Shown here: positions 10,889-54,573 of the stretch, piece after piece
Layout: each line of letters opens with the position of its first letter
Numbering within the stretch: position 1 is the first letter of the stretch
IMG/VR virus record: IMGVR_UViG_3300016457_001358
Location: 1-63,208 of that record
Length of the DNA stretch: 63,208 bases
Strand: one strand, 5' to 3'
Source of the DNA: a virus
Notes under the pieces: generated by a model
The model's input: only the letters and a program-made list of their open reading frames with translations
The model's database searches: none
What the model was told of the DNA's origin: nothing
Translations under genes and position numbers: made by a program

Positions 10889-11338
10889 TCACATTATGAC
10901 AAGCCATCCTTTGTATTTTTTATTATTCGGTTCGTATACGGCATCGCTTTGGGGTTCGACCAAATAGAATTTGCGTTCATTTGAGATAAAGCAATTCAGC
11001 GCATGAGAATAGTTCTTTCCCGTAATCCAAATGATTCCGAACGCAAGATCGGCGTTCCAGTCCTGTATGTACCCCATCAGCCTGTATGAAAAATTATCGC
11101 AATCGAATCTCTCCGCCTTGTACTTCATTTCGTCGGTTTTGTCCTGCGCCAAAAACTCTTTCAATTTGCCGACCGATATCAGTTTGTATTTTTGGTCGCT
11201 CAAATAGATTTTTGCTCTAGGGAAAACTCTGGACACTATATCATACACTTCATTGTGGCTTATCTCCGAATACTCTTTCGTTTGCCTTCGTTTTCCGAAG
11301 AGCAATTCGACTACGAATTCCAGTATTTTTTTGAGCAT
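10889..11338 (-). CDS. hypothetical protein (last gene of structural operon)
   Basis: 149 aa ORF. Confidence 0.4.
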   Translation of the reverse strand: MLKKILEFVVELLFGKRRQTKEYSEISHNEVYDIVSRVFPRAKIYLSDQKYKLISVGKLKEFLAQDKTDEMKYKAERFDCDNFSYRLMGYIQDWNADLAFGIIWITGKNYSHALNCFISNERKFYLVEPQSDAVYEPNNKKYKGWLVIM

Positions 11339-18565: not shown

Positions 18566-20743
18566 TCAACCCAAAACAACCCAATCGGTTGAGTTGCATC
18601 CCAAAAATTGCTTTGATGATGAGTTGTAAACTATGATGCCTTCGTAAGACGATGAGCATGCTGGATATGACGAAGACGTGACATTCAGATAATAATCTGT
18701 ATTAAGATTCCCGCTCATTGTATCCCCGGTCTTCTTGACATAGTTTCCGCTCGCATCGTGGCTCGCCAAGCCGAGCAGATACTCTGCCCTGATTTCCTGC
18801 GCCGTCAGGCTTCGGTTGAATATTTTGACCTCGTCTATTGTGCCGTTGAAATAACTACTATATCCGTCCCATCCTATATGTAAGGGAGCATTATTTGCCT
18901 GAATTTGAAGATTTGGAACCGATATTGTGTTTTTCAAATCCGCATCTCGATAAAACCTGATTTCGTCATTACTATTATCTGCTACACCAACAAGATATAT
19001 CCACTGTCCAGTAGGGGTTGTTTCGTTGTCACCAACTACCCACCAGTTTCCATCTTGTTGTCGTATTTGGAATAATGCTCTACCAGGATATCCGCCCTTC
19101 AATTCCCCGTAGCCATCATTAGTCCACGAACCTTGTAATGAATAACTCTCTGAATTAGGAGATGCTCCGTTTAATTTTTTACACACAATCCCATCATTAT
19201 CGATGGCATCATTCAATTTTACCCATGCTGAAACCGTAATCCCATCAGTGATATCCAAACTCGCTGAATCGGGCACTCTCACATAATCATCCACTCCATC
19301 AAAACTCAAAGCGGTTCCAAACCGCCCAGAAACCCATTGTGGCGGGGTGTTTCCGTCGGCGTTGGTCGAGTTGGCGTCGTAAAGTGTGCCGTCGTTTCCC
19401 TCTCTTGAACTGTCGTAAGCGGTTGTTCCTGTATTTTCGTCAAACGCCCAGTAACCGACCAGACCCTCGCCGTTTGATTGAAGGGTGTTGTTGAAGCCGA
19501 GAATGGCGGAATCGAATGTCCAACTGCCCGTGATGGTCTCGCTCGCCGACTTGTCAACCAAATTTGTGGCGGCAATGCCGTCGACGGTTGACGATGAATC
19601 TAAGGTGAGGGTGTCGGCCACCTCGTCATCGGTCCAGTCAAACCCCAATGTTCCGGTGTTTGCCAGCGCTCCTTTGTCGACGGATGAACTTGAGTTAAGG
19701 GTTAAGGCGTCGGGAATGTCATCATCGGCGAGTGCCGAGCATTGAAGCGTGTCATTTACGCCTGTTACGAAATAGTGTGCGGAACAATATGCAGGGTAAT
19801 TTGTTAGTGCCGTGAAATCTACCGAACCTGTGTTATCTATAGTGAGACTATTGGAGATGTTGCCATCGTTGATCGGGTTCGTCATGTAAATATAATCTAT
19901 CCAGGCGCTGTTTATGTTCGTGAAGTTCGAATCCGACCAATCAAACACCGAGTTGGCAACTGCCGTGTCGCCGTCCACATCTATAAATGTATTCACATCT
20001 CCCTCGACATCCGACTTATCCACATCTCCCGTAAGTTTCGTTGCGCTTATCAAATTGGCTCCTGTTATATTATAATCATTCATATTCAGATTTCCGCTCA
20101 TCGTATCTCCAGAGACATCCACATAGTTATCATCCAAGAGAGCGGTCAGGTCCGACTCGGAATCAAAATATTGATCGTCCAGCGCATTGTCATCTATAAT
20201 AATATTGTTATAGGTTCCGGAAACCTCTCCGCCAAATGACGTGCCGGCGTCGAGAACCTTGTTTCCGTTTTGGTAAACATTCGTCGCATTGAGGTCCGTT
20301 ATGTTGATCAGGTTTGACAAAGCCCAGTTGAAAAGGGAGCCTGCCGAGACTGTGTCGCCGCCTTCGTCTATGAACTTATCGTTCAGGTTTGTCCCGTCGT
20401 CGTAAAAGTTCGATGCGTTGATGTTCTCCGCCACAATATCGTATCCCGTTCCGTCAAGGTTGGTTTCAAGATTTGTGGCATACAAATTGGTTGTATGAAC
20501 ATTGGTTGTGTTTACATTTGTTACATTAAAAACGTCTCTTTGCAACATGTTCAGAGAATCATTCAGGCTCATATTACCGTAAACGGTAAAACCATCCGAA
20601 TCGGTTATGTTTAGAATATTTTTGATGCCGTACCAGTTTTGTAAATCGATATCGGCCCCCGGTCTGAAATCGGTCAGAGCGTAAACTATGCTGCTCAAAG
20701 CCCACATTCCCAATAAAATAGTAAGTAGTTTTTTCACATCCAT
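18566..20743 (-). CDS. secreted LamG/ConA-like domain protein (fibre or surface adhesin)
   Basis: Signal peptide MDVKKLLTILLGMWALSSIVYA; Asn/Thr-rich repeats; LamG-type FDGVDDYVRVPDSASLDITDGITVSAWVKL and LTAQEIRAEY; many N-x-S/T sequons. Confidence 0.6.
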   Translation of the reverse strand: MDVKKLLTILLGMWALSSIVYALTDFRPGADIDLQNWYGIKNILNITDSDGFTVYGNMSLNDSLNMLQRDVFNVTNVNTTNVHTTNLYATNLETNLDGTGYDIVAENINASNFYDDGTNLNDKFIDEGGDTVSAGSLFNWALSNLINITDLNATNVYQNGNKVLDAGTSFGGEVSGTYNNIIIDDNALDDQYFDSESDLTALLDDNYVDVSGDTMSGNLNMNDYNITGANLISATKLTGDVDKSDVEGDVNTFIDVDGDTAVANSVFDWSDSNFTNINSAWIDYIYMTNPINDGNISNSLTIDNTGSVDFTALTNYPAYCSAHYFVTGVNDTLQCSALADDDIPDALTLNSSSSVDKGALANTGTLGFDWTDDEVADTLTLDSSSTVDGIAATNLVDKSASETITGSWTFDSAILGFNNTLQSNGEGLVGYWAFDENTGTTAYDSSREGNDGTLYDANSTNADGNTPPQWVSGRFGTALSFDGVDDYVRVPDSASLDITDGITVSAWVKLNDAIDNDGIVCKKLNGASPNSESYSLQGSWTNDGYGELKGGYPGRALFQIRQQDGNWWVVGDNETTPTGQWIYLVGVADNSNDEIRFYRDADLKNTISVPNLQIQANNAPLHIGWDGYSSYFNGTIDEVKIFNRSLTAQEIRAEYLLGLASHDASGNYVKKTGDTMSGNLNTDYYLNVTSSSYPACSSSYEGIIVYNSSSKQFLGCNSTDWVVLG

Positions 20744-21129
20744 AGCATCACTTCCAAATCCGAATCGTCCGCCAGCTTGCCCAAAAATGTGATGGTTGTC
20801 GGGGGACCGTGCGACACGGTATAGTCCTTGTCCTCGAGCAAAACGACCCTGTCTTTTATGACCATTACCATGGTCGAAGCGTGCGAAGTGTTGTCGCAGG
20901 TAAGCACCCTGTTTGTATCTCCGTCGCTTCCCGAGCAATCCGCTCCGGTTTTGTTTTTAACCTTGTGTGGATAAATGCCCGCTCCGCCGGAAGAAAAATC
21001 CAGCTCATCGCTTCCGCCGGGATTGTGCCTGGCGCTGTGATTTTTCAAGTCCGCAACCAGGTCATTCCAGTCAGACGATAACACAAGATTGGTGCTGTCT
21101 TTCGTATCATCAAACGCCATAGAAAACAC
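20734..21129 (-). CDS. hypothetical protein
   Basis: 131 aa ORF. Confidence 0.35.
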   Translation of the reverse strand: MFSMAFDDTKDSTNLVLSSDWNDLVADLKNHSARHNPGGSDELDFSSGGAGIYPHKVKNKTGADCSGSDGDTNRVLTCDNTSHASTMVMVIKDRVVLLEDKDYTVSHGPPTTITFLGKLADDSDLEVMLWM

Positions 21130-24843: not shown

Positions 24844-26010
24844 TTACTCATCAGCTACTACGAGCCGGACAATTGCGTCTGGATGAACCGCCTTGGCCTC
24901 GTATGCGAGACTGAGTTTCATTCTTATTTGGTCTGCGTTAGGCCAGTCAAACACTTTGACCGTTGCTTGTCGTCCCCAAACTATCGCTCCGCACTTCTTT
25001 GCTTTTACCAGTCCGCAAATGTGACCGTTAACATCGGTGCTGACATTTGCTCCCTGTACTCTTATTACGCCCGCATTCGAAAATGCTGGAACTTTTGAGG
25101 TACAGACCACTTTAACTCCCAGGTATTGCCCTATTTCTCCATGCAATACCACTTCATCTGAACCGTATTCCGACGCATTGACGAACTGAGAATCGTCTTG
25201 CAATGCTTGTCTTTGCTCAGGCGCTATGAACAAAACAAACGGTTCGTCTGGCGTTGGTTCCCAAGCATTTTTGGTTACCGCTGATTTGGTGAATGTGTTG
25301 CTGCTCCAATAGTAACCGATATTGGAAGTCAGCAATCTGATCGCTTTCGAAATCATGCTCGTTGTCAGAATATCGCCTGCATCCAAAGAGTCGTCTGCAT
25401 TCGTTGCGTCTCCGCCGAATATTGTTTGCGCGCCGTTCACGGTATTGCTCATTGGCGTTGGTTCGGATGCGTCTTCTCCGCTCGCATCCGTTTTAAATGT
25501 TCCGAGCAATGCGTCTCTGATCGCGCTGTCGACGGAGTTTTCGTATTTGTAAGATAACTCCTCTCTACAGTATGTCACTTGATCCAGCGCATTGGTCATT
25601 ATTGCTTTGTTGGAAATTGCGACGCCGTAGTTGTAGTATGTTGGCGTGAACTGAACCGAATCGGCGGTGTCTATTTGCGTCCATGAAATCTCGCTGCCCG
25701 CCGAGTATTCTTCTGAACTCGATTCCCAGCTTGAATCAGCCAGGTATTTCTTTCTTTTAGCCATGAAGTAGTCTTTTGCTCTCTCTGCTAACTGAACCTG
25801 AGTAACCACGTCCAAGAATCTTAATCTCTCTCTCGCAGCATCAACGGCCTTTTTGGCATAAATCGCCGGAGTAAGACCGTAGATGTTGGTTCCCGCGCTA
25901 CCCTGAACGCTGGATACAGTAGTTACTGTGCTTGACAGTTCGAATGTCTTGAAGCCAAGTTTATCCATTCGCGGTACCATCGACAATTTATATGTTATTC
26001 CATTTTCCAT
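24844..26010 (-). CDS. putative major capsid protein
   Basis: 388 aa directly after scaffold-like gene in terminase-portal-scaffold order; no motif verified. Confidence 0.5.
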   Translation of the reverse strand: MENGITYKLSMVPRMDKLGFKTFELSSTVTTVSSVQGSAGTNIYGLTPAIYAKKAVDAARERLRFLDVVTQVQLAERAKDYFMAKRKKYLADSSWESSSEEYSAGSEISWTQIDTADSVQFTPTYYNYGVAISNKAIMTNALDQVTYCREELSYKYENSVDSAIRDALLGTFKTDASGEDASEPTPMSNTVNGAQTIFGGDATNADDSLDAGDILTTSMISKAIRLLTSNIGYYWSSNTFTKSAVTKNAWEPTPDEPFVLFIAPEQRQALQDDSQFVNASEYGSDEVVLHGEIGQYLGVKVVCTSKVPAFSNAGVIRVQGANVSTDVNGHICGLVKAKKCGAIVWGRQATVKVFDWPNADQIRMKLSLAYEAKAVHPDAIVRLVVADE

Positions 26011-26015: not shown

Positions 26016-27221
26016 TCACCCGATTGGCAATCCCAAAAAGTTTTTCTGTATGAACTGAGCCATAGCTTCATCAACGTCTTCGATTTTCTCCTCGTTTAAT
26101 TCTGCCTTAACGCTGAGTCTTTCAGGCTTTGCCGACAGTTCGAATCTCTCGGCTTTCAATGCCTCGATTTCTTCTCTTAGTTCGGACAATTTTTCTTCCG
26201 CGGTCATGGATTTTTCCTTTTTCCATGCCTTGGCCGCGTCCGATATCGTCTTTCCTGGGTTCTTTTTGAGGAATTTCTTGATGAATTCGGTGTATTCGCT
26301 CAGTTCTTTTTCCTTCGCTTCCTCAAGATCCTGTTTTGAAATAGCCTTCATTTCCTGTTCGGTTAGTTTTTCAGGATAAGGATATTTCTTCTTTTTCATT
26401 TCTTCGTCTTCAGGATACGGATACTTTTTGTCTTTCTCTTTTGCCTTTTCGGTTTCAGGATAAGGATACTTTTTCTTTTTCAAAGCCTGCTCAACGGATT
26501 TCGCTATTATTTCTTCGAGCTCCTGTTTTGTCAGCGTTATTTTTTCTTCGAGGTTCTCCTCTTTTTGGTCTTTGCTTTGCTCCTCCGAAGAGCTCTGCTC
26601 TCCAGAAGATTCTGCTTTTGCTGGTTCAGCGTTTTCCGGTTCGTTTTCCGGCTGCTTATCTTCGTCTGCCATAGACTCACCTTTCACTCGTGAATCAACG
26701 GAATCAGCTACGCTGGTTCCGCTCTCATTAAGAGTATAAAACTGATTGGGGAACAAATACTTGCCATCATCCGAAGCATTGCTTCGATTGAGATAGGTGG
26801 TTTTGCATGCGGGATTGGTAACAAATGAGAAATTCTTATATACTATGTCTCTGACGCTGTTGCCAACCTGCCTTCCCACTATTTTCGGACTGATGCCCCA
26901 CTTCACGCCGACCAGCAGCGATTTCTGGGCTTTGTCGTCAACCACGTATAAATCTCCGACCAGGTTATTTTTTTCTATGCGAATGTTTTTAGCCATTCCC
27001 GCCCATTGCCACGCGGCGTCATCGTTGTGATCCCAGTAAAGATAAGTGTTCGTTTCATCGTCCCAATCGGTATTTATGTACCCTTGTTTGATGGTTTCGC
27101 TGTCATAGTAAAGGTTGTTCCAGATACCAGGGCTCATCAGTTTGCAGTCTTTGATAACCAATGTTTTCACACCATTTATATTTTTGAATTCAAATCTGGT
27201 ATTTTTGATGTTAGAATTCAT
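26016..27221 (-). CDS. putative scaffolding protein
   Basis: Acidic coiled-coil C-half with three KKYPYPE repeats; between large virion protein and capsid gene. Confidence 0.5.
   Translation of the reverse strand: MNSNIKNTRFEFKNINGVKTLVIKDCKLMSPGIWNNLYYDSETIKQGYINTDWDDETNTYLYWDHNDDAAWQWAGMAKNIRIEKNNLVGDLYVVDDKAQKSLLVGVKWGISPKIVGRQVGNSVRDIVYKNFSFVTNPACKTTYLNRSNASDDGKYLFPNQFYTLNESGTSVADSVDSRVKGESMADEDKQPENEPENAEPAKAESSGEQSSSEEQSKDQKEENLEEKITLTKQELEEIIAKSVEQALKKKKYPYPETEKAKEKDKKYPYPEDEEMKKKKYPYPEKLTEQEMKAISKQDLEEAKEKELSEYTEFIKKFLKKNPGKTISDAAKAWKKEKSMTAEEKLSELREEIEALKAERFELSAKPERLSVKAELNEEKIEDVDEAMAQFIQKNFLGLPIG
26370..26481. repeat. three ~27-nt tandem units inside the scaffold gene
   Basis: tcaggataaggatatttcttctttttc-like unit x3. 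Confidence 0.7.
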
Positions 27222-27267: not shown

Positions 27268-30200
27268 TCAAATGAGTTTGAGAATCTTTTGATACCGATA
27301 CACGGTGTTTTTTGACAGTCCAGTCGCCAGACTGATGCTTCTTCTGGATTCGTTTTTTGCCGTGAGCTCGATTATCTGCTTCAATATTTTGCCCGTAACC
27401 TTCACGGGCTGACCGGCTTTTTTGATTTTGTCGAAAAGCATGATCCACGTTTGAGGCCCGATGTGCGCGATGTGGAATGAATACTCGCCCGTCATATCGA
27501 TCAGCTTCTTTGGCGGTTTAACCAGCACTGGAGCTCCCTCTTTTTTCGCCATTTGCAAAGGCTTCAGGTTAACATCGCCCTTGTCCGATCTGAACTCTAT
27601 TCTTATTTTGTGATCGGTCACTTCGTGGATGGTGTACACGCCTCTGGAAATTATGATAAAGACCCCGGGATAGCGCGTTTTAGCCGTGCCGATCTTATGC
27701 GTGACCCCGTCGAAGAACAGCCAGTCCACCGGCTCCGTCAGCTTGATCGTTCCTCTGACATGCGAACTGTCGGCATAGTTCGATTCTTCCACCGTTGCGG
27801 GAGTGAACAGCGTTATCCCTTCGAGGCAACCCTTGAGTTTGCCTTTTTTGAACAATGCCAGCGCGTCATCGTAGGTCAAGACTTTGCAAGTTACTTCGTC
27901 GGGAACAAACAACCTGACATCCCGGTGCGTTTTTCGCCCTATGCTGTGCAGGTGGATGACATAAGGCATCCACAGATTGTTGTTCATGATTTTTTTGAAA
28001 TTTCTCTGCATTCTCTCCGGGAAGTCCCTGATTATTTTGACTTCTTTGGCTTCCTCCGGCTCTTTTTTCAACTCTTCGTGCTTCACCGCAACGCCGATCG
28101 CGGTGACTATGTCCTCGAGTTCGTCTATTGTCGAAGTTTCCTTTTTTTCCGTAATATGATTGACCCTTGGCTTGTGAATCGAGTACCACCTGCCTTTGTC
28201 CGATTCGTGCCTCCAAACCTCTTCGACCAAAATGCTCAGTATGGCTCCCTCTTCGTATTTTTCGGATGTGTTGAACGTTTTGCCGAGAACCAGCACCTTT
28301 TTTCCTTTGAAATCGGTTATCTTGTCGGGGTTGATGCCGGCGTCCTTTTCCCTCAGATAGACTCCCACGAGATAGTTGTAAAGATTCTTTTCCTTGGGAA
28401 TTCGGTCCAGTATCACCACATCTATATCGACGAGGTTGCGAAATTTCAGCCACGACTTATGCTCTCCGAAATGATACTTTGCCGACAGGTCTTTGATCAC
28501 GGCCCCTTCCGAGTAAGGCAGATTCTTTGCCCACTCTATCGCCTTTCTGACTTCATCGACCCCTTTCGCAAACTTTCTCTGAATGAGCAAGGTTCTGGGA
28601 CCGAAGTTCAATTTATTCAAATATTTGATGCGCTCGTGTAAGCTCAGGTTCGTGATATCATTATCGAAGTAAACGATGTCCCATATAAATATCTTAATGT
28701 TTTTGTCGTCCACCTTTTTTCCGCTTTCGATCGCTCCTATGAATTTCATCAATGTGTTTCTTCCGAGCTGCTTGCCGTCGTCGAAAGGAACTATCTCGCC
28801 GTCCACTATGAAATTAGCATCGCTCATCTTCGATATCGCATCGCACAGAGTCGGAAACGCAAACGTCAGCTCTTTTTTTTGCTCTGAAAATATCTTCACT
28901 TCGCTTCCCTTTTTGTGGCAGCACACGTGAAATCCGTTTATCTTTTTCTCTACGGAGTATTCGATATCATTCCTGATCTTTGCCATTATGTCATCGATTT
29001 TGTAATAAGCCGAGCCCAGCGGTTTTTGAGGAAGATAAGGCTCGAACAGCCGAACCGAATCTCCGAGAATTATTTCGTTCATTTCCACTATTTTGGTCGG
29101 TTTGATGCGCTCCAGTTTCAAATCGTAAAGCGGAATGAATGAGTCGTGGCTGCCCTCCGCATCTCCCCATATCATGTGAATCTTCGGTATCAACTCGGCG
29201 TAGCCGTTTTCTTCGAGCATTTTCAGCAGCCTGACTTCGATCGCCCTTCTTATATACGAGTTCTTCTCCGCTCGCAATCTGATTTGCAAGTCCACATCGT
29301 TCGGTATGTGACCCTTTGGTCTTTTCACGGTAGAACCGACCAGAGAAATGCAGTCCTTGACTATTTTGAAGTCCTTGAATGCGTCCAGAAAATCGAGATT
29401 CGTCAAATCAACTTTCTTGTGTATCATCTCCTTTTCTCCGGTTATTCGCTTATACAGATCCAATGACCATTTCTTGTAGGTTTCCGGGTGAAACTCAATG
29501 CCCCTTTTCTTGAGCTCCTCGTATATCATTTTGGCGAGATTGACGAGAGTTTCTTCCGAATACGGTGTTTTCTCTCCTCTTTTCAGCTTGCTGTAATGGG
29601 CGCACACCAGTCTGTAATCGTCCTTCAAAACATCCGTGCTCAACTTTTTGGGATCATACGTCTCCGGGTTCTGTATCAAATTCGCTTCGACGTTCTGGAA
29701 CTCAAATTTTTCCAACACGCTTTCGATTTTTTCGGCGAGCGAATCCCACCAGCTTTCCCAACCTTTCTCGCCGTACCACACTTTGCCCGCAACGACCACT
29801 CTTGGTCTGTTCTCGGCGCCGATGTCGCATTTGGAATACAAGCCGTCCTGCTTGTCCAGCTCTTTGCTGATATCTTCGGCTTTGTCATCGTCGGCCGGGT
29901 TCGCCATCCTGAACACTATGAAGGCGACCCTCTCGGGCGACTTTCCCTCGTCGCTCGCCCTTATCTCTATCTCCTTGATCCCGTTCAGTTGCTCGAGCCA
30001 CTCGTCCTTTATATGAACATCGATATCGTTGAAACCGTTCCACGACTTCTTCGGACCGTCCGTGCGGCCGCTCAACCAGCCTCCCGGCGGCAATTTGTTG
30101 TATACCGCGTAGTATGCGAATGTGGGCGAATTCATTTTCGGCGTGTAATCCGCATTCAAAAATTCGATATCCTTCACGAATGTTTGCGTGCCTTTTTTAA

Positions 30201-32106
30201 ACTTCCACCTTCGCGGAGCTGAAAACTTCGTGATCCATTCAAACGAGAATTCGTAAAAATGCTTTTTGTCTTTCCATCCCCATTTTTCAATCTCGCTCTC
30301 GCTGATCAAATGAAGATTCGCCCTCTCGTCGAACTGCTTTTTCGTGATTTTGTTTGGCGCATGAAGCCTGATAACGCCGTAAACAAACTCTTTGTCCACG
30401 ACATAAAGAGCTTTGTCCACCATCTCGGGATAAGGTCTCGTCTTTATTATCAGCGATTTTTTTCCGCCCCATAACCATCTGGCGTGAGGCGACGGCAAAT
30501 AAATTCCCTCTCTCTGCTCGAACAGTTGCAACTCCACCAACTTCTGACTCGCGTCAATTGAATCGGGATCGTAGTTGCTGAATACCAGCTCGTATTCGGG
30601 CTTGTCGTTCTTGGCGAAGGTTCTTTTGTGGAGCATCTTTTTCATGTAAAAATCTTTGAACAAATCCCTTATCCAGTCGGCATCATTCAATGTTAAAAGA
30701 AACTTTCCCTTCACCGATTTCAAAATGTCGCGGAGCTCCCGCAGGTTTTCTTTCGTGAATTTCAAACCGTTTTTTTCGAACTTCCACTCGTCGGGATAAG
30801 GGGGATCGACAAAGAAAAACGTCTGCGAGGAGTCGAACCTCTTTATGATCGATTTGTAGTCCTGGTTGTATATCTTCACGCCCTTCAATCTGTTCCTCAG
30901 CGCGTCCCATCTGTTCAAAATCCCGAGCAACTTTTCTTTGTTGAACCAGCCGTATGTTTCTCTGTCTATTCCGTAAGAGTATCTCGTGAGATACAAAAAT
31001 TTGGCGAATCTCTCGGCATCGTTCTTCGGCTTCAATTCTTTGATCCTGAAAAAAGTCGGTTTGTCGTTTTTCCATGCGTATTGCCTGAGCCTTTGGGCAT
31101 CTTCGGCGCTCGTGCTTTGTATGAATTTGTACGCGAACGCGATCTCTGGATCGAGATCGTTTAAAACCTCGATTTCGCTCGGGCTCTTTCTCCAGAACAC
31201 CGCAGCTCCGCCGGCGAACGGCTCGCAGTAAATTTTGTGCTGTGGCATCATCTTGATCAATTTTTCCGCGACCCTGCTCTTGCCGCCCGGGCTGCCGAAC
31301 GCCTGTTGCATGAGTTCATGATCTTTGTATAGCACCATGCCGTCGTAAGACAAAATGATTTCGCTGCTCGATTTCCCCTTTATCTGGTTCCAGTATCGCC
31401 GAATCTGTTTTTCGGCCTCGTGATGGTCGGGATACGAGCGCCCCGCTTGTATCAGCACGAATTTGTCTGGATTGTATGCTTGAGCGTATGCCAGCGAATT
31501 GGCGACATTCAGATGCCCTCTCAACATCTTGCCCGTGGCAACTATCTCGCCTCCCCTTTCTTCCAAATTGTAAATGGCCGCATCCAGAATCATTATGTCC
31601 GCGTTTTTGAGATAGCGCTCGTTTTCTGCGGGGACCGATTCCATGTCCTCGGCATAAACCAAGCCGTCGATCCTGTACCCGTAGCAGGGAAATTTCTTGC
31701 CGGTCGGAAACGCCTCCGCGTGAATCACCCTGAAAGGAATTATCTTGAATCCCATTATTTCGTTCGTCTGGCGAGGAGTTATCGGTTTGAGAACGATGTT
31801 TTTGAACTTCTTTTGTAGCCTTTCGTTCGCCAGCACATCCGGGGGAGCGTAAACGTTTATGGGCTCGGTCAGCCACTTGTCCAGATCGGGCAGACCGCCA
31901 ATGCAGTCGGCGTGAGCGTGCGTCAGCAGGCAGAAGTCTATTTTCTCGATGCCGTTCTTCTCCGCTTGCTCCCTGAAGTGCTTGGTGACATCGATTATGA
32001 AGGATTTTCCGCCCTTTTCTACATAGATGGAGCTATTGGTGCGCCTGTTTTTTCCTCTTCCTTCAACTAACTGAGTCGGACCCGAGCCCAGCACAACTAT
32101 TTTCAT
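27268..32106 (-). CDS. giant multi-domain (polyvalent-type) virion-module protein: MBL-fold hydrolase + Dam-like N6-adenine MTase + ligase-like nucleotidyltransferase
   Basis: LLTHAHADCIGG; GGKSRVAEKL..YCEPFAGGAAVF..FFFVDPPYPDEW; EKKINGFHV..FIVDGEIV..SWLKFRN; likely start MKIVVLGSG at 32106. Confidence 0.75.
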   Translation of the reverse strand: MKIVVLGSGPTQLVEGRGKNRRTNSSIYVEKGGKSFIIDVTKHFREQAEKNGIEKIDFCLLTHAHADCIGGLPDLDKWLTEPINVYAPPDVLANERLQKKFKNIVLKPITPRQTNEIMGFKIIPFRVIHAEAFPTGKKFPCYGYRIDGLVYAEDMESVPAENERYLKNADIMILDAAIYNLEERGGEIVATGKMLRGHLNVANSLAYAQAYNPDKFVLIQAGRSYPDHHEAEKQIRRYWNQIKGKSSSEIILSYDGMVLYKDHELMQQAFGSPGGKSRVAEKLIKMMPQHKIYCEPFAGGAAVFWRKSPSEIEVLNDLDPEIAFAYKFIQSTSAEDAQRLRQYAWKNDKPTFFRIKELKPKNDAERFAKFLYLTRYSYGIDRETYGWFNKEKLLGILNRWDALRNRLKGVKIYNQDYKSIIKRFDSSQTFFFVDPPYPDEWKFEKNGLKFTKENLRELRDILKSVKGKFLLTLNDADWIRDLFKDFYMKKMLHKRTFAKNDKPEYELVFSNYDPDSIDASQKLVELQLFEQREGIYLPSPHARWLWGGKKSLIIKTRPYPEMVDKALYVVDKEFVYGVIRLHAPNKITKKQFDERANLHLISESEIEKWGWKDKKHFYEFSFEWITKFSAPRRWKFKKGTQTFVKDIEFLNADYTPKMNSPTFAYYAVYNKLPPGGWLSGRTDGPKKSWNGFNDIDVHIKDEWLEQLNGIKEIEIRASDEGKSPERVAFIVFRMANPADDDKAEDISKELDKQDGLYSKCDIGAENRPRVVVAGKVWYGEKGWESWWDSLAEKIESVLEKFEFQNVEANLIQNPETYDPKKLSTDVLKDDYRLVCAHYSKLKRGEKTPYSEETLVNLAKMIYEELKKRGIEFHPETYKKWSLDLYKRITGEKEMIHKKVDLTNLDFLDAFKDFKIVKDCISLVGSTVKRPKGHIPNDVDLQIRLRAEKNSYIRRAIEVRLLKMLEENGYAELIPKIHMIWGDAEGSHDSFIPLYDLKLERIKPTKIVEMNEIILGDSVRLFEPYLPQKPLGSAYYKIDDIMAKIRNDIEYSVEKKINGFHVCCHKKGSEVKIFSEQKKELTFAFPTLCDAISKMSDANFIVDGEIVPFDDGKQLGRNTLMKFIGAIESGKKVDDKNIKIFIWDIVYFDNDITNLSLHERIKYLNKLNFGPRTLLIQRKFAKGVDEVRKAIEWAKNLPYSEGAVIKDLSAKYHFGEHKSWLKFRNLVDIDVVILDRIPKEKNLYNYLVGVYLREKDAGINPDKITDFKGKKVLVLGKTFNTSEKYEEGAILSILVEEVWRHESDKGRWYSIHKPRVNHITEKKETSTIDELEDIVTAIGVAVKHEELKKEPEEAKEVKIIRDFPERMQRNFKKIMNNNLWMPYVIHLHSIGRKTHRDVRLFVPDEVTCKVLTYDDALALFKKGKLKGCLEGITLFTPATVEESNYADSSHVRGTIKLTEPVDWLFFDGVTHKIGTAKTRYPGVFIIISRGVYTIHEVTDHKIRIEFRSDKGDVNLKPLQMAKKEGAPVLVKPPKKLIDMTGEYSFHIAHIGPQTWIMLFDKIKKAGQPVKVTGKILKQIIELTAKNESRRSISLATGLSKNTVYRYQKILKLI

Positions 32107-33380
32107 TCGCGATCTCCATGAATTTTGGGCATGCCCTCTATCTCCCTGATGTAATCCTCGGTTTCCGGATTGGGAGTTATCAAACCATGCTTCGCGCATC
32201 TCGCTATTCTCTCCATCTTCGAATCGAGCTCCTCCAGAGAAATCTCCCCCCACTGTATTTTCACGGGCGGAACGCGGTTAACCTGGGAAATCCTTCTTAT
32301 CACTTTGGATTCGAGAACTCCCACCGTTCTCTCTATTATGTCCTTGAGCCTTATCTTGAAAATGTACTCCTGCCTGTTGAGAGTGGATCGGTTGGTCGTT
32401 TCTCCGAGCCCCGTCGCGAACGCTTTGGGTATGCCCATGCCGGTGATCATGACATCCATCCAGTAGTCGAGAAAGTTTCTTATTTTGGCGGACTGCCTCG
32501 ATTCCAGCAGACCGATCTTCAACCAGCTGGGATGGGAGAACGCGGTCAGGCTGTTGATGTCCTTCAGCTGCTCCGCAACCTTGGTTATCTGCTCCGGCGT
32601 GGCATCGTGAGTTTCGTCGCCCACCGACGCGTCGATCAGCGGAAAGCCGACCCTGTAGCTGGCGTTGGCGAAACCGTCCTCGACCGCCAGCTGCCTGAGA
32701 TACGACTTGTAAATCGGCTCGATCAATCCGATTCCGTAGAAGCCGTCCCCGACCTCGTACAGCTTGAAATGGGCGACCCTTTCCGGTGGCAGAAATATCT
32801 TGTTGCCCTGCAAAGAAACCTGGGGCGGGGGAGCGATTTTGTTGTTCACCCTTTCCATCGACGGAACCGACTGCGTGTATCCGACCGGGTTCCCGTAATC
32901 ATCCAGAGCGATTCTGTCCGAGCTGTCCTTCGCGTAGTCGAACCTTTTCGGATCTATGATGTCCAGATCGACTATCGCGCTCTTTTTCAAGCTCCCCTTC
33001 TCGATCGTGCCGTAGATTATCTCCCAAGGGCAGAACCCGTAGATGAACTGGTACTGAAATGTTTTTGTGAGAATGTTCCGCCAGTTCGTTTCTCCGCCCG
33101 TGTATCCGACATTGTCGAAAAACTCCGAAAAGTATTCGACGGCCTCTTTGCTGCCCTTCAAAGAGTACCCGGCGCTCATGATGATCTGGGTCAGCACGTT
33201 GATCGAGTTGTGTATTATTCCGTTTTTCGTGTAGCATTGCTCGAGCTCCTTCAGCTGGCCGGGAACCATCCTTTCCAATTCCGGCGTCGCTTTCTTGGCG
33301 ACGGGGACCGGCGAAATCTTCGAAACGGCCGAAGCCAGATTGAAGGACCTTCTGCCTCCGAACAAATCCGACAGCAGCAT
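32103..33380 (-). CDS. putative portal protein
   Basis: 425 aa immediately downstream of terminase large subunit; position and size only. Confidence 0.5.
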   Translation of the reverse strand: MLLSDLFGGRRSFNLASAVSKISPVPVAKKATPELERMVPGQLKELEQCYTKNGIIHNSINVLTQIIMSAGYSLKGSKEAVEYFSEFFDNVGYTGGETNWRNILTKTFQYQFIYGFCPWEIIYGTIEKGSLKKSAIVDLDIIDPKRFDYAKDSSDRIALDDYGNPVGYTQSVPSMERVNNKIAPPPQVSLQGNKIFLPPERVAHFKLYEVGDGFYGIGLIEPIYKSYLRQLAVEDGFANASYRVGFPLIDASVGDETHDATPEQITKVAEQLKDINSLTAFSHPSWLKIGLLESRQSAKIRNFLDYWMDVMITGMGIPKAFATGLGETTNRSTLNRQEYIFKIRLKDIIERTVGVLESKVIRRISQVNRVPPVKIQWGEISLEELDSKMERIARCAKHGLITPNPETEDYIREIEGMPKIHGDRE

Positions 33381-33628: not shown

Positions 33629-35149
33629 TTATAATATTATCGCTTTAGTATTTAAAGTTTTGTTTTCGATCGCTTTAGTGTTTAAAGTTTTGTCTTCGGG
33701 CTTGCTCTCCCTCTTGGTCCCGATCAACAGATCGCCCTTGGCATGCACCTTCACGGGAACTGCGCTGACGGCTAAAGCGAGCGCCATCACCATGTCGTCG
33801 TGGGCCGCGCTCGACTGGTAGCTCGTGATTCCCGACTGGGTCTTGACCTTTCTCATCGCCGTGAGCTCCTTGTAGAGCTCGTCCGTCAAATGCTCCGCGC
33901 GCGAGCCGGGCTTGTGAGGAAATATGATCTTCCTCTCCTCTATTATCCTCCTCAGGTTCATGAGATAGTTGATTCTCCTCTTGTAATCGAACCTGCAGCC
34001 GACGGCCCGAAGCCCCTGCATCCTCAGATCCTGTATGAAGTTCGACCCGAACAGGCTCTCGTCGATGAGAACCGCCTTCGGATGAAACGTTTCGCTCAAC
34101 TTTATCAGCTCCTTTCTCTGAATCGGGATTGCAACCCCCCTCATCCTCACGATCCTCCTCACCACGGCCGCCGCGCCCACATTGTCAACGACGACGAAAA
34201 CCGTGTAGTCGGCATCCTTGCCGGTCGAGTACGCCAGGTCGCAGCCGATGTAGCACGCCCCCTCCACATTGTCCGAGAAATCTATTTTGTCGTCCCAGCA
34301 GTTCAGCACCATGTTCGGGGGGAACAGCGCGTCCTCGACCGCGAGCGTATCCACCATGTACTCCCTGTCGAACTTTATGCTCCCCATCGATTCCCTTATT
34401 TCGGCAAGCCTTTCCGGGGGATAAAGCTCGGGAAATATCGACTCCCCGTACTTCATTCTCTTGTAAATCGGGCTGTCGAACCCCTTCCTCCCCTCGTACT
34501 TCCTGCTCTTCATCGCGGGATAGAACCGCGTGACGAACTGCTTGTTCTCCAGAAGCTTGTGGGGGATGTCGGTCTCCGATTCCGGCGTCGTTATTCCCAC
34601 GAGCTTGCCCCTCTCCGCCGTGACCCTGGTCAAAACATACCTGAAAAAGATGTCGTGGTTCGCGTAAGACGCCAGCTCGTCCGCCACGACGTAGTTCAAG
34701 TGAAACCCCTTTATGCTCTCCGTGTAAGGCCGGCAAAACAGCCTCGATCCGTTCGCCGTCTCGATCTTGGTCTTAGTCCACGTGACCTTGAGCCTCTCCT
34801 CGGGCTCAAGCTCCCTCAGCAGCTCGTTCTTCAGTATCATGTCCTTGTTTCTCTCGAGCAGCTTGGTCGCGTGCTCCATGATCTTCGATATGACCAGAAC
34901 CTCGGACCCCGGCTTGTAGTACAGTATCCACAGCGGAATCCCGACCCCGAATATGCACGTCTTTCCGAAGCCCGTCGGCGCAACTATGCAAACCCTGTCG
35001 TGCCTGCGCCACAGATCTATCCACTCCCTGTGGCACGGCTTGATGTGCCAGCCAAACACCCTCTCTATCCAGAATGCGGGATCCTTTTTGCCGCGCAGAT
35101 AAAACGCGTCGATGCTATCCCCCTTCAGTATTTGCTCCATCGTCCTCAT
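33629..35149 (-). CDS. terminase large subunit
   Basis: Walker A IVAPTGFGKT, Walker B YVVADE, C-terminal nuclease-like IGCDLAYSTGKDADYTVFVVVD. Confidence 0.85.
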   Translation of the reverse strand: MRTMEQILKGDSIDAFYLRGKKDPAFWIERVFGWHIKPCHREWIDLWRRHDRVCIVAPTGFGKTCIFGVGIPLWILYYKPGSEVLVISKIMEHATKLLERNKDMILKNELLRELEPEERLKVTWTKTKIETANGSRLFCRPYTESIKGFHLNYVVADELASYANHDIFFRYVLTRVTAERGKLVGITTPESETDIPHKLLENKQFVTRFYPAMKSRKYEGRKGFDSPIYKRMKYGESIFPELYPPERLAEIRESMGSIKFDREYMVDTLAVEDALFPPNMVLNCWDDKIDFSDNVEGACYIGCDLAYSTGKDADYTVFVVVDNVGAAAVVRRIVRMRGVAIPIQRKELIKLSETFHPKAVLIDESLFGSNFIQDLRMQGLRAVGCRFDYKRRINYLMNLRRIIEERKIIFPHKPGSRAEHLTDELYKELTAMRKVKTQSGITSYQSSAAHDDMVMALALAVSAVPVKVHAKGDLLIGTKRESKPEDKTLNTKAIENKTLNTKAIIL

Positions 35150-35429: not shown

Positions 35430-36174
35430 ACTATAAAAATACGCTCAAAAATATAAAAACCTTGCGATGACACACCAGCGCCCAAAATGTCTTACTCTAC
35501 AGATACCGCTAAGGCAGTTCATTAAGATTACGGTAAGGAAGAACGCTTCGGTGCGGATTCGACATTCTCCCATCCCGCATGTCAGAGATATCCATTTTAC
35601 TTATGTTATTTGAATTCATAAGGAAGCGCTCAATTTCCAACAGACGCACAAAGTTGGATGTGCGAGGCCGATACCGGCAATTTTATCTCATTCACCGCCG
35701 CTTACCATCGATTCACAAAGCGGGCGGCAGTTTTGTAAAATCCTTGCGAGCTCAATCTCATTTTTTGCCCGGTCCCGTTGCAACAGCTCATCATCAGCAT
35801 CTCGCCAGTACAGCAAACAAATATTCGCGCGGGGATAAATGCGGTCGCTTTGGTAGCAAATGCGATATTTATGCAATATTGTTTTACAAACAGCAAATAT
35901 GCTATTCAGAACTAACGGATGCAATATCTATTTTGTAGGATATATGTTTTCGACTGTAAAATTTTGGGGAAAATAGCGAGGGCTGGCACTATACCCATTT
36001 ATCAAAAAATTTCTCGTGAATCCAAAATTCCGATATACAAATGCTTATATTACTATTGTGGCATATAAAACCAGATATAGATTATATTATAACAATACAG
36101 ACATATAAAATAGAAATTGCGACATAAAAATAAGAAAATGAAAAATAAAGAATATAAAAAAGAAAATAAAAAAA

Positions 36175-36894
36175 TCAAATATACATTTTTGCTAATGCTT
36201 GTATTTTCTGCATATCAATATGCTTTATTGTTGTTTGTGTTCTGTTTCTGTTTGTTTGTGTTTTCTGTTGTTTCTGATAAACAAATTTGTATATGTAAAA
36301 TATCTTTTGTCTCTGTAATTTCGCTATCTTCTCTCTCATCCATGCTAATAATATTTTTCTTCTTCTCTCATATTCTCTGTATTCTGTTATGCTCATATTC
36401 ATTTCTTTTGCTTCTGTGTGTTCTGTTATTCTTCTATGCTTCATTATTATGTTTCTAATATCAAAGAGATAATTGCTATTCAATTCATCGATCAATTTTT
36501 TTATTTCTCTGTTTATTCTGTTTATTCTTGATATTCTTGATTTGTAATTGTATATTGTTCTTATGTCATTATTTTTCTTCATTTCTTTTATTGTCGCATT
36601 TATTTGCTTGATTCTATGTAATGCTAATGTATAAATTCTGTCTGATGTTGTTGTTTTTTTTGCGATTTTTTGGCATTCTCGTCTTTCTTTCAATAATTGA
36701 TAATATTTGTTGTTTTGCTCTAAATCTCTTAATAATGTTGCTCTTATGTCTATGATTTCTTTATATTTTTCTGTTATCTCTATTATTCTTTTTGCTATTA
36801 ATAAATTTCTGTAATCTCTTGACATTCCATATCTGTTTTTTGCTGTTTCTTTTATTTCTCCAATTAACTCCTGATATGTTGCCATATTCATCAA
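36175..36894 (-). CDS. hypothetical K/R/I/N-rich protein in AT-rich island
   Basis: 239 aa; purine-rich coding strand; composition unlike the rest of the replicon. Confidence 0.3.
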   Translation of the reverse strand: MMNMATYQELIGEIKETAKNRYGMSRDYRNLLIAKRIIEITEKYKEIIDIRATLLRDLEQNNKYYQLLKERRECQKIAKKTTTSDRIYTLALHRIKQINATIKEMKKNNDIRTIYNYKSRISRINRINREIKKLIDELNSNYLFDIRNIIMKHRRITEHTEAKEMNMSITEYREYERRRKILLAWMREKIAKLQRQKIFYIYKFVYQKQQKTQTNRNRTQTTIKHIDMQKIQALAKMYI

Positions 36895-37140
36895 ATATTA
36901 TTATGCATTATGTATATAAAAAGATTATTGCCATTCTTTTATCATTATATAATATAAGCATCCAAAAATCTTAATTTGTTTCTCCAAAATATAAATTCTA
37001 ATCGCCAAATTGTAAAATATGAGATCAAATCGCTATTTATGATGGACCTGATTATAATCGCTATGATGCAACAAATATATTGATGAATATAATTGATGTA
37101 TGCTATTTTTACAATATATATAGAAACAATAAAAAGAGTG

Positions 37141-37350
37141 ATGCAAATGGACATAAACAAATTAATAGAACAAGCAAAGAATACAAGCACAAAAAGAGTC
37201 TCAAAAGATAAATATTTGTGCTTGTATTGGAATAAAGAGAAAGAACCCGAAAACTACAGAGTTGTGAAAGAATTCATGAAAAAACATGATTTGACACCCA
37301 CAGAATTGAAATTATTCCTTATTCAGATAATAAAGAGTAAAAACAATTGA
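37141..37350 (+). CDS. hypothetical small protein
   Basis: ATG at 37141 in frame 37093..37350. Confidence 0.3.
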   Translation: MQMDINKLIEQAKNTSTKRVSKDKYLCLYWNKEKEPENYRVVKEFMKKHDLTPTELKLFLIQIIKSKNN

Positions 37351-37359
37351 TTGCGGGTT

Positions 37360-37450
37360 CTTTCTTTTTGATTTGTTTGTTTTTGCTTTTTTTTATATTC
37401 TTTTATTTTTACTGTTTTAAAAGCGTTTAAAGGTTTTTAAGGGTGCTTGT
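37360..37450. promoter_or_regulatory. AT-rich upstream repeat, copy 1 of 3
   Basis: ttttaaaagcgtttaaaggtttttaagggt recurs at ~37735 and ~38050, each before a small ORF. Confidence 0.4.
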
Positions 37451-37684
37451 ATGAAGGAGAAAATTGAATGGAAAGAGTTTGAAATCGCGGGTAGCAAGTT
37501 CTATGCGGCAGTTGTGGGTATGGCGGTCATCGGAAACGAAACTCAAGTCATCGTTAGCGATGAAATTCATGCCATCAAGGGGGTCGCTTTTATACACGCC
37601 GACGGCAGCTTCACTTGGTTGAACCCGCCAGACAACTTCAAAGCCGATGTTGAAAAGAAGTTGCTCGAGTTGTATCCGCGATAG
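37451..37684 (+). CDS. hypothetical small protein
   Basis: 77 aa ORF behind repeat copy 1. Confidence 0.35.
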   Translation: MKEKIEWKEFEIAGSKFYAAVVGMAVIGNETQVIVSDEIHAIKGVAFIHADGSFTWLNPPDNFKADVEKKLLELYPR

Positions 37685-37799
37685 GATCTCTTTTTAATTT
37701 ATTTGTTTTTATTTATATTTTTTTATATTCATCATTTTAAAAGCGGTTTTTAAATGGGTCGTATATCGTTCATTTTAAATCTTTAAAAGTGTTGAAAAA

Positions 37800-37922
37800 T
37801 GACAAAAGAAACAAAATTCTTGGTAAGAGTGAATACAGGAGATACAAAGGTAGTATCTGAAAAAGAGATTGAAGAACTCGCTAAAAGCATTGAGTATAGT
37901 GTACTGGATGTCTATTTTTAGA
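37800..37922 (+). CDS. hypothetical small protein
   Basis: ~40 aa ORF behind repeat copy 2. Confidence 0.25.
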
Positions 37923-37952
37923 GTGGTTTAAGGATCGGACCCTTACCACTCT
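37918..37952. repeat. conserved hairpin after cassette ORF
   Basis: agagtggtttaaggatcggacccttaccactct; near-identical copy at 38268..38300. Confidence 0.5.
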
Positions 37953-38087
37953 CTGGGTGGGTCATACGGGTGGGGAGTTGATTACTAGAAGCGGTCAATT
38001 CCGCTTTAATTTTATTTTTATATTTTTATTTATATTTTTATATTTCTATTTTTAAACGATTTTAAATGGGTCACATAGGTGAATTAA

Positions 38088-51640: not shown

Positions 51641-52543
51641 TTGAGTGTGATTTCTATGGCGATAGCGGGCAGACGATATTACCAGCAACTGATCAGAGGC
51701 GTTGAATACCTAATCAGGGGAGATTTCAACAGCCTCTGGGTCCTGGGTCCGGGCGGAATCGGAAAATCTATGGTGATCGACAGCGTTTTGGACGAAAACA
51801 AATTGAAAGAGGGCAGAGACTACACCATATTCAGGGGAAACATATCCGATGCTTATTTGTATGAGTTCATCTATAACAACAGGGACAGGATTATAATTTT
51901 CAGGGATGTTGCCAAACTGATACGCAGGTTGAACACGATCGACACGTTCAAAAGTTTGACCGAGGAAAGGGGCAGAAGGATCATCAGCAACAAAACTTAC
52001 GCCGAGCACGATGTCCCGGACACATTCGAATTCACCGGAAGGATCATTTTTGAAATCAACGACATCATGAAGAAATACGAAGCGGATCTGAAGGCGCTGT
52101 TCAGCAGGGGATTGTTCGTTGAAATAATACTCTCCTACGATGACATCAAAAACATTATGTACGAAAGATGCGACACCGAAGTCAAAAAGCAGATAACAAA
52201 AATGCTGATAAGCAACTTCAACTACCTTGGAAGGAGCGGGTTCAATCTGCGAACCCAAAATATATGTTTCAAAATATACGAGGCGTGCATCCGGGACAAA
52301 AAAGACTGGAAGCGGGAGATCGACATGTTTCTCAAAAGTCAGATGAGCGAGCCCAGAAAACTGCTGTACGAATGCGCCGGGTTCAAGCCGGTCAAGCGGA
52401 TGGATTTCGTCAAATTCTTGATGAGCCGGAAGGGATACTCTTATTCAAGTTGCCAGAGAAGAATCAAGGACTATCTCATAATGGGAGAGATATTCAGCAA
52501 CGGTTTGAAAAAGCAGTCCCTCTTGAAATTGACCCCGTTTTGA
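51641..52543 (+). CDS. P-loop NTPase
   Basis: Walker A GPGGIGKS; Walker B-like RIIIFRDV. Confidence 0.55.
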   Translation: MSVISMAIAGRRYYQQLIRGVEYLIRGDFNSLWVLGPGGIGKSMVIDSVLDENKLKEGRDYTIFRGNISDAYLYEFIYNNRDRIIIFRDVAKLIRRLNTIDTFKSLTEERGRRIISNKTYAEHDVPDTFEFTGRIIFEINDIMKKYEADLKALFSRGLFVEIILSYDDIKNIMYERCDTEVKKQITKMLISNFNYLGRSGFNLRTQNICFKIYEACIRDKKDWKREIDMFLKSQMSEPRKLLYECAGFKPVKRMDFVKFLMSRKGYSYSSCQRRIKDYLIMGEIFSNGLKKQSLLKLTPF

Positions 52544-52614
52544 GCAATCGAATCTCTGAATTCGAGCATGGAAAAATGGGTCAAATGTATCAAATATTCG
52601 CATACAATATCTCG

Positions 52615-54464: not shown

Positions 54465-54491
54465 TTAAAAAAAGAAATTATGGACATCAAT

Positions 54492-54563
54492 AGGCGGTTG
54501 GTGAAATCAGGCATCATAATAGGCTCATAACCTATTGTTTCGGTTCAAATCCGAAACCGCCTA
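54492..54563 (+). tRNA. tRNA with anticodon CAU (Met or Ile2)
   Basis: Hand-folded cloverleaf: 7-bp acceptor aggcggt/accgcct, D-loop with GG, anticodon loop cuCAUaa, T-arm ttcgg-ttcaaat-ccgaa; no encoded CCA. Confidence 0.55.
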
Positions 54564-54573
54564 TGGTAATGGA

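Follow-up and report, generated by a model that had tools for sequence, protein, structure and literature searches.

The giant gene and its place in the head operon

In this work we describe a giant gene from a virus, IMG/VR virus record IMGVR_UViG_3300016457_001358, of which we analysed positions 1 to 63,208 (63,208 nucleotides, hereafter the window). The gene lies on the minus strand at 27268..32106 and encodes a 1,612-aa polyvalent protein composed of nine modules, here lettered A to I, which from N- to C-terminus are a metallo-beta-lactamase (MBL) fold, a Dam-class methyltransferase, an ASCH domain, an alpha/beta module, a helical module, a probable Pol-beta-type nucleotidyltransferase (NTase), a ligase, a LigD-type phosphoesterase (PE) and a helix-turn-helix (HTH). 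Module borders were obtained by mapping iterative hidden Markov models (HMMs) of successive segments on 120 homologues, and at least five of the nine modules are enzymatic. The NTase, ligase and PE form a LigD-like cassette that is the stable core of a large family of such proteins, and both the position of the gene and the composition of its relatives tie it to the building of the viral head.

The gene is part of a single uninterrupted open reading frame (ORF) at 27268..32253 on the minus strand, and its functional start is the ATG at 32106. This codon shares bases with the stop codon of the portal gene (ATGA), has a GGAG 8 nt upstream, is also called as the start on four independent metagenome contigs, and agrees with the N-termini of homologues (MKIVVLGSGPT or MKLIVLGSGPT, i.e. 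MK(I/L)(V/I)xLGSGPT). The identical 1,612-aa protein was found on at least 16 contigs. In a codon comparison with a 93%-identical homologue from another metagenome, the ratio of non-synonymous to synonymous substitutions (dN/dS) was 0.068 for the whole gene (dS 0.51) and 0.016-0.108 across all nine modules, D and E included; purifying selection acts on every module. The two ends of the window (1-91 and 63118-63208) form an exact 91-bp overlap through which the sequence closes, so that it represents a complete circular or circularly permuted genome of ~63.1 kb.

The first-pass annotation of this sequence had placed an ORF of ~1600 aa between putative portal and scaffold genes of a head-morphogenesis module, and both the size and the setting were borne out, with portal, large terminase (TerL), scaffold-like and major capsid genes all grouped around the giant gene. 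These genes form a co-directional late operon on the minus strand in the order TerL (33629-35149; Terminase_6N / Terminase_6C, PHROG_38 5e-46), a 78-aa ORF, a Mu-type portal (32103-33380; PF06074 1.3e-12, PHROG portal) that is directly upstream of the giant gene and translationally coupled to it, the giant gene, a 401-aa scaffold-like protein (26016-27221), the major capsid protein (24844-26010; PHROG major head protein 1.7e-12) and tail genes. The 401-aa downstream neighbour aligns with residues 5-374 of its counterpart in the related locus L005 (blastp 1e-67) and is equivalent to the N-terminal half of what is, in the closest relatives, a single scaffold-capsid fusion of 766-789 aa (Phage_capsid_4); the major capsid protein shares 60-63% identity with the Phage_capsid_4 proteins of L005 and L006 over their C-terminal half. 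Since the two neighbours match the two halves of one protein in relatives, the scaffold label is reasonable. Three KKYPYPE repeats occur within a Lys/Glu-rich region of the 401-aa protein, which does not resemble the XkdF domains that relatives of the giant protein carry, and no prohead protease was recognised in the window genome.

This arrangement is conserved well beyond the window. Taking the window together with eight related loci, the giant gene is found directly downstream of the portal, with or without a MuF gene between them, in 9/9 cases; the order TerL, portal, (MuF), giant gene is kept in all eight related loci, and in six of these a scaffold/protease or capsid gene lies no more than one or two genes beyond the giant gene (in L007 and L008 no capsid gene is annotated downstream of it). 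The loci examined represent diverged viruses and proviruses with different portal and capsid families, including Myxococcales and Dehalococcoidia assemblies. A separate MuF gene is absent from the window, L005 and L006, and is present upstream of the giant gene in more distant relatives.

Identity and conservation of the nine modules

Three domains had been named in the first-pass annotation, namely an MBL-fold hydrolase, a Dam-like N6-adenine methyltransferase and a ligase-like nucleotidyltransferase, and every motif string quoted for them is present: LLTHAHADCIGG at residues 60-71, GGKSRVAEKL at 274-283, FAGGAAVF at 297-304, DPPYPDEW at 434-441, EKKINGFHV at 1053-1061, FIVDGEIV at 1099-1106 and SWLKFRN at 1218-1224. 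All three domains proved correct, each matching its Pfam family above the gathering cut-off (Lactamase_B_2 1.4e-18, aa 44-219; MethyltransfD12 1.4e-20, aa 273-495; DNA_ligase_A_M 1.9e-24, aa 1034-1222), and searches of Pfam, PHROGs, PDB sequences and NCBIfam, domain by domain, were concordant on them. Where that inventory fell short was in the remainder of the protein, as six further modules (ASCH, alpha/beta, helical, NTase, PE and HTH) had been overlooked. Because a PE and a probable NTase flank the ligase, these additions move the likely function from pure anti-restriction methylation towards the healing and sealing of DNA ends.

The centre of this cassette is module G (aa 1011-1340; 28087..29076, minus strand), an ATP-dependent ligase with adenylation and OB domains (Pfam 1.9e-24; dN/dS 0.051). 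It matches ligase structures in the PDB (3gde, 1.6e-16; the alignment to 9df9 runs through the OB domain), the NCBIfam models dnl1 (4e-22) and NHEJ_ligase_lig (8e-17), and the PHROG ATP-dependent DNA ligase (2.5e-15). Motifs III, IIIa, IV and V are conserved, and residues K1055, D1102/E1104, D1143, E1200-G-x3-K1205 and K1221 are each kept in 49-60 of 57-60 aligned sequences. Motif I reads KxNG instead of KxDG, on account of which the domain had been suggested to be divergent or inactive. The catalytic lysine, K1055, is retained in 55 of the 57 aligned sequences, however, and the residue two positions after it is asparagine in 27 relatives and aspartate in 27; since the two are equally common, the asparagine is best seen as a clade trait. 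The active ligases Trl1-LIG and MthRnl likewise have KxNG as their motif I, and in them the asparagine is dispensable (PMC6379707, PMC4797309). In view of the conserved lysine and motifs, the occurrence of KxNG in active ligases and the low dN/dS of the module, we rejected an inactive or decayed ligase.

Immediately N-terminal to the ligase, module F (aa 901-1010; 29077..29406, minus strand) is a probable nucleotidyltransferase of the Pol-beta superfamily, as judged from its G-[GS] and DxD signatures (LVGS...NDVDLQI). Its motif hG[GS]-x9-13-DhD and predicted order of strands and helices follow the pattern of that superfamily, with G23 and D38 invariant and D36 near-invariant. Individual family members match NTP_transf_2 (7/24, best 5e-4), Polbeta (4) and DNA_pol_B_palm (2), one relative scores above the Pfam cut-off, and weak PDB profile matches were obtained to the AF0614 NTase and to African swine fever virus Pol X.

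On the other side of the ligase, module H (aa 1341-1545; 27472..28086, minus strand) has the fold of a LigD-type 3'-phosphoesterase, as recognised from an AlphaFold2 model (pLDDT 84.6) compared by Foldseek. The five best, and only significant, matches are all LigD PE structures (3p43, 3n9b chains A and B, 3p4h and 3n9d), with E-values of 8e-6 to 4e-5, probability 1.0 and target TM-scores of 0.64-0.79. The module carries the motif Q-x-H1387-x6-H1394-x-D1396-x-R1398, which is the metal-site motif of LigD PE with one extra loop residue; both histidines and the aspartate are invariant in the family, and the glutamine and arginine are at least 90% conserved. A profile of the module found no match among PDB sequences. 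In many distant relatives a second, shorter match to the PE HMM occurs (P0060 aa 1965-2101, ...FKGPTVVREGPSKELWH...; P0021 aa 1321-1510; P0059 aa 1514-1668), which may have arisen by duplication of the PE barrel and then diverged or lost its activity, and which is absent from the window protein.

The N-terminal part of the protein is made up of two further enzymes and a nucleic-acid-binding domain. Module A (aa 1-262; 31321..32106, minus strand) is an MBL-fold phosphodiesterase of the PhnP / RNase Z / Lactamase_B_2 clade (Pfam 1.4e-18), with PDB matches to 6b9v (2e-17) and PhnP (4e-3), NCBIfam matches to PRK02113, PhnP and RNase Z, and a PHROG match to a metal-dependent hydrolase (8e-19). H63, H65, D67, H129, D154 and H198 are conserved in the family, and in the motif H63xH65xD67-C68 a cysteine replaces the usual fourth histidine of HxHxDH. 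Module B (aa 263-515; 30562..31320, minus strand) is a D12-class (Dam/DpnIIA-like) N6-adenine DNA methyltransferase (Pfam 1.4e-20, PHROG_56 8.5e-47, TIGR00571 6e-26) that scores 74.5 bits against PF02086, for which the cut-off is 22. Its motifs, namely the FxGxG site at 297-301 (F297-x-G299-x-A), D317 and DPPY at 434-437, are conserved in 190-197 of 198 domain copies. Module C (aa 526-650; 30157..30531, minus strand) is a PUA-like beta-barrel that matches ASCH structures, and its relatives in fold searches include a ribonuclease and the ac4C amidohydrolase YqfB.

Three modules remain. Module D (aa 651-805; 29692..30156, minus strand; NSPTFAY...RPRVVVAGK) is an alpha/beta module delimited by iterative HMMs (dN/dS 0.035) that is rare in the family (6/120 relatives); it is confidently folded, with no significant match and no recognisable relative in fold searches. 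Stand-alone proteins of 183-201 aa related to it at 61-68% identity (P0265, P0267-P0269; L015:4450-5028; L016:3706-4257) are encoded among closely packed virus-like genes that carry no annotation, with transglutaminase-core proteins as neighbours in L015. Module E (aa 806-900; 29407..29691, minus strand; dN/dS 0.041) is helical, is shared by 49/120 relatives and gave no decisive match in fold searches. The C-terminal module I (aa 1546-1612; 27271..27471, minus strand) is a resolvase-type HTH with three predicted helices, for which the HTH_7 score is weak in the window protein (0.005-0.05) and reaches 2e-6 in the 59%-identical relative P0002.

A family of shuffled giant proteins

The 120 relatives, which range from 900 to 2,600 aa, contain the same modules shuffled into many orders, with one to five copies of the Dam domain and, in some members, accessory C5 methylase, NUDIX, uracil-DNA glycosylase (UDG) or 2H phosphoesterase modules or inteins. 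Within this variability the NTase-ligase-PE cassette is the stable core: the PE is present in 64 of the 68 ligase-bearing relatives, all three modules occur together in 57 of the 68, the NTase immediately precedes the ligase in 43, and the PE immediately follows it in 40. When 1.84 billion representatives were searched with the PE-module profile, we retrieved 1,109 clusters (50% identity), of which 817 had E<=1e-10; the best 150 matches are mostly proteins of 600-2,100 aa. The annotated phage collection contained no full-length relative, the only matches being to the Dam domain and to the ligase of the virus ANMV-1, and no close relative turned up when the GTDB species genomes were scanned.

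A link to head assembly is provided by the XkdF/Peptidase_S78_2 prohead-protease domain, which is carried by 70 of the 120 relatives and stands at the extreme C-terminus in 67 of them. In the loci L010 and L011, XkdF-bearing giant proteins are encoded exactly where a prohead protease would be, after MuF and before the capsid gene.

In the relatives P0010, P0022 and P0064 the giant protein is interrupted by inteins that contain LAGLIDADG or HNH endonucleases. That of P0022 lies within the ligase module, and the large terminase of L005 (L005:3711-6119) is intein-bearing as well.

Relationship to known systems

Polyvalent proteins have been defined as single polypeptides that combine two to fifteen different domains, most of them enzymatic (Iyer et al. 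2017, PMC5512222). The window protein shares with those described by Iyer, Burroughs, Anand, de Souza and Aravind a giant multi-enzyme chain encoded beside portal-terminase genes, a recurrent N6-adenine methylase, extreme domain shuffling and a predicted role in the first minutes of invasion. With nine modules in one polypeptide beside the portal and terminase genes, the polyvalent-type label given in the first-pass annotation is apt; by architecture and context this is a polyvalent protein, although its module set falls outside the published catalogue of the family. None of the published hub domains MPTase, SNF2 ATPase, ArdC, ART and MuF was detected in it, and the N6A methylase, of the D12 class in Pfam, is the only hub domain it carries; conversely, DNA ligase, ASCH and metallo-beta-lactamase modules are not mentioned in that paper. 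The core here is instead the NTase-ligase-LigD-PE cassette, an XkdF prohead protease would often serve as the vehicle, and the virus is probably archaeal.

The cassette itself is closest in composition to LigD (POL-LIG-PE) and to the stand-alone archaeal Lig, PE and Pol proteins of non-homologous end joining (NHEJ), all of which combine an ATP-dependent ligase, a 3'-phosphoesterase (H...HxDxR) and a nucleotide-adding domain, covalently joined in LigD as in the window protein. There are also differences. A Pol-beta-type NTase would replace the AEP primase-polymerase (no AEP or LigD POL match was found for the window protein in Pfam or NCBIfam), the HxnH loop of the PE is one residue longer, the PE also has large insertions and another second-shell motif, no Ku partner was found among the ORFs scanned, and the gene belongs to a head operon and is fused to Dam, MBL and ASCH modules. 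With no AEP polymerase match in Pfam or NCBIfam and no Ku among the ~50 ORFs scanned, we rejected the classification of the protein as a bona fide LigD. The mycobacteriophages Omega and Corndog bring Ku and borrow the host ligase, whereas the window virus encodes a ligase and PE with no detectable Ku.

Several other giant or head-associated proteins were considered. P1 DarB, a head component and methylase that protects incoming DNA in cis (PMC5512222), is likewise a very large protein with an adenine methyltransferase. DarB, however, pairs its methylase with a SWI2/SNF2-type helicase, whereas in the window protein the methylase is of the D12/Dam class, no homology to DarB was detected outside the methyltransferase fold, and no helicase domain was found in Pfam or PHROGs; a DarB-like classification was rejected on the missing helicase. 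MuF / SPP1 gp7 minor head proteins fused to effectors occupy the same slot right after a Mu-type portal. The window protein is not a MuF derivative, since it has no PF04233 match at E<=1 and since MuF is a separate upstream gene in distant relatives, and a MuF-like classification was rejected on the same grounds. The anti-Pycsar MBL phosphodiesterase Apyc1 is also virus-encoded and also belongs to the Lactamase_B_2 clade; a precomputed PF23023 match is weak for the window protein and stronger in P0002, the local Pfam scan gave none, and PDB comparisons were weak (7u2r E=0.32 and 7t28 E=0.17, against 2e-17 for 6b9v; the window motif is HxHxDC). Because direct similarity is marginal, we did not adopt the Apyc1 label. 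Finally, the best match in the annotated phage collection is an 866-aa 'ATP-dependent DNA ligase' (KP703175, AJP62006) of the archaeal (ANME-1) virus ANMV-1, which aligns with residues 900-1336, i.e. the NTase-like module and the ligase, at 24.6% identity (4e-19). This protein lacks both Dam and MBL domains, is far shorter than the window protein, and has as neighbours a MutT-like hydrolase and a 1,166-aa hypothetical protein instead of portal and capsid genes.

Known giant proteins that are delivered with phage DNA centre on methylase-helicase pairs, peptidases, ADP-ribosyltransferases and RNases. A follow-up survey of jumbo phages does not mention LigD, and a literature search for LigD phosphoesterase with phage virions or for XkdF-methyltransferase fusions, whose coverage was incomplete so that an earlier description is possible, returned nothing relevant.

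Proposed function and alternative explanations

Our leading reading, to which we give a confidence slightly short of probable, is that the gene encodes a head-module polyvalent protein whose LigD-like end-healing and sealing cassette, together with its Dam domain, would be incorporated into capsids and act on viral DNA at entry. The first-pass annotation had likewise suggested that the protein may be packaged and delivered with the DNA, by analogy with large capsid-internal anti-restriction proteins of phages, and this idea gains support from context, namely the slot next to the portal in 9/9 loci, the capsid or prohead-protease gene close behind in six of the eight related loci and the XkdF domain of 70 relatives. 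Polyvalent proteins encoded beside portal-terminase genes have been predicted to be packaged and injected (PMC5512222), and in the mycobacteriophages Omega and Corndog circularisation of the genome depends on end joining of the LigD type (PMC12848934, citing Pitcher et al. 2006). The giant protein would be built into the procapsid and accompany the genome, in most relatives through the C-terminal XkdF prohead-protease domain and in the window protein possibly through contacts made by the helical module or the DNA-binding HTH, and it may act on the viral DNA at packaging as well as at entry. The Dam module would methylate adenines and so blunt restriction, an anti-restriction role already suggested in the first-pass annotation that its domain class makes plausible. 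Damaged 3' ends, nicks or genome termini would be healed and sealed through a division of labour resembling that of LigD, with the Pol-beta-type NTase, in place of the LigD AEP polymerase, extending ends, the PE trimming 3'-phosphate or ribonucleotide ends to 3'-OH, and the ligase sealing them. The MBL phosphodiesterase could handle cyclic-phosphate ends or nucleotide second messengers and alarm signals.

Several observations weigh against this proposal. The window protein has no XkdF domain by local HMM searches, and in Pfam it matches neither MuF nor another element that could target it to capsids. Among the ~50 ORFs scanned (every ORF of at least 140 aa, smaller ones not being scanned) there is no Ku, and the T4-type terminase together with the circularly closing assembly suggests headful packaging, which would leave no cohesive ends in need of a ligase. 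As KxNG is better known from RNA ligases, the substrate of the ligase may not be DNA. The assignment of module F is only moderate, since neither fold search with it recovered an NTase fold. Sequence profiles barely link the PE to LigD, Pfam LigD_N matching only 2/19 PE members, which made structure prediction and Foldseek necessary for the assignment; the second-shell element of the PE, compared by eye, is E-P-x2-W in contrast to the E-x-H-x3-Y of LigD. The MBL module, for its part, lacks the fourth histidine of HxHxDH, a position occupied by A, C or H across the family.

The main rival, which we regard as unlikely while taking it seriously, is that the protein serves DNA maturation in step with packaging and is not ejected at all. 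It would dock at the portal or procapsid and methylate and nick-seal concatemers before or during packaging, or its Dam domain would control packaging initiation, with no role in the next infection. The same synteny and translational coupling to the portal would be explained, as would the late-operon position and the C-terminal DNA-binding HTH. Nicks impede phage DNA packaging, and pac cleavage in P1 depends on Dam methylation. However, the C-terminal prohead-protease fusion in 67 relatives would put the enzymes inside the procapsid and not outside at the motor, and the MBL phosphodiesterase and ASCH domain have no obvious role in packaging. Were the protein instead an RNA-directed counter-defence effector, it would mend tRNA or rRNA that anticodon nucleases of the host or CRISPR-associated RNases have cleaved: MBL and PE would heal 2',3'-cyclic-phosphate and 3'-phosphate ends, the NTase would rebuild 3' ends, the KxNG ligase would seal RNA, ASCH would bind RNA, and the MBL would also degrade cyclic-nucleotide alarm signals. 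KxNG is indeed characteristic of the RNA ligases Trl1 and MthRnl, the MBL belongs to the PhnP / RNase Z clade with its weak precomputed Apyc1 family match, ASCH relatives include a ribonuclease and the amidohydrolase YqfB, and some relatives have added 2H phosphoesterase or NUDIX modules. The T4 Rnl1-like RNA ligase of the same genome can be read both ways, as a sign of RNA repair and as a dedicated enzyme that already supplies it. We consider this explanation improbable, as the ligase fits DNA-ligase models, including the OB domain, and not RNA-ligase models, there is no polynucleotide kinase module that could supply 5'-phosphates, and the cassette is almost always fused to DNA methyltransferases, in up to five copies.

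More improbable still is an ordinary cytoplasmic replication and repair polyprotein that entered the structural operon as a moron-like insertion with no physical link to the capsid. The recognised modules are all nucleic-acid enzymes of kinds that are also found in viruses as separate early genes, the 866-aa ANMV-1 ligase with its F and G modules lies outside any obvious head module, and the inteins and homing endonucleases of relatives reveal that mobile elements visit the giant gene. An insertion of this kind would not be expected to keep the portal-adjacent slot in 9/9 loci of bacterial and probably archaeal viruses, to be fused covalently to XkdF, or to have its start translationally coupled to the portal stop. 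That the MBL and methyltransferase motifs are chance matches, a possibility raised together with the original domain calls, or that the gene is a decaying pseudogene, is refuted by E-values of 1e-18 to 1e-47, which exclude chance, by the identical ORF on at least 16 contigs and by the whole-gene dN/dS of 0.068.

A bolder extension of the capsid-delivery proposal, which we hold to be doubtful, is that the cassette is a self-contained, virion-delivered end-joining machine and thereby a viral counterpart of LigD in function, with a Pol-beta-type NTase standing in for the AEP polymerase. Tethered inside capsids via prohead-protease fusions, it would need no repair enzymes of the host to circularise or mend the linear genome on entry, Dam meanwhile marking the DNA, and it would represent a widespread, undescribed strategy of bacterial and archaeal tailed viruses comprising ~1,100 protein clusters. 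Should delivery to the cell or to the packaging site prove true, certain tailed viruses, archaeal ones probably among them, would bring along a DNA end-repair and sealing kit of their own. This would bear on how linear viral genomes survive host nucleases and circularise, on how cargo enzymes are loaded into capsids, for which the prohead-protease fusion is a candidate route, and on the origin of LigD-like modules; the cassette could also supply compact end-healing and ligation enzymes.

Host and remaining features of the genome

The virus is tailed and its host is probably an archaeon, as suggested by the presence of PCNA, the archaeal origin of the best PDB ligase matches, ANMV-1 as the best phage match and a Heimdallarchaeota-labelled relative. 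PCNA (46311-47096), whose homology search returned metagenomic relatives only, is encoded on the plus strand, as are an RNase HII with an N-terminal extension of ~150 aa (52168-53301) and an adjacent pair comprising a glutamine amidotransferase and a RimK-like ATP-grasp protein (42743-44562).

Further nucleic-acid enzymes on the plus strand are the T4 Rnl1-family RNA ligase (39700-40746), a (PF0610-like) HTH fused to a metallophosphoesterase (4158-5066) and a second DNA methyltransferase, of the N6/N4 class (3210-4025), which suggest a separate capacity for RNA repair and a second methylation specificity. A single tRNA-Met (CAT) is located at 54491-54564 on the plus strand.

Across the whole window several 4-bp palindromes are strongly avoided (observed/expected: CTAG 0.05, ACGT 0.27, GTAC 0.28, GGCC 0.49), which suggests restriction pressure from the host; GATC, the likely target of the Dam class, is mildly depleted (0.73). 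An AT-rich stretch at ~35500-38000 (GC 0.29) coincides with a switch in coding strand and GC skew and is a candidate replication origin or divergent promoter region. In the tail region, on the minus strand, a protein with an agglutinin / ricin-type C-terminal domain (10889-11338) and a 790-aa protein with a concanavalin-A-like Laminin_G_3 domain (18566-20938) are both candidate glycan-recognising receptor-binding proteins.

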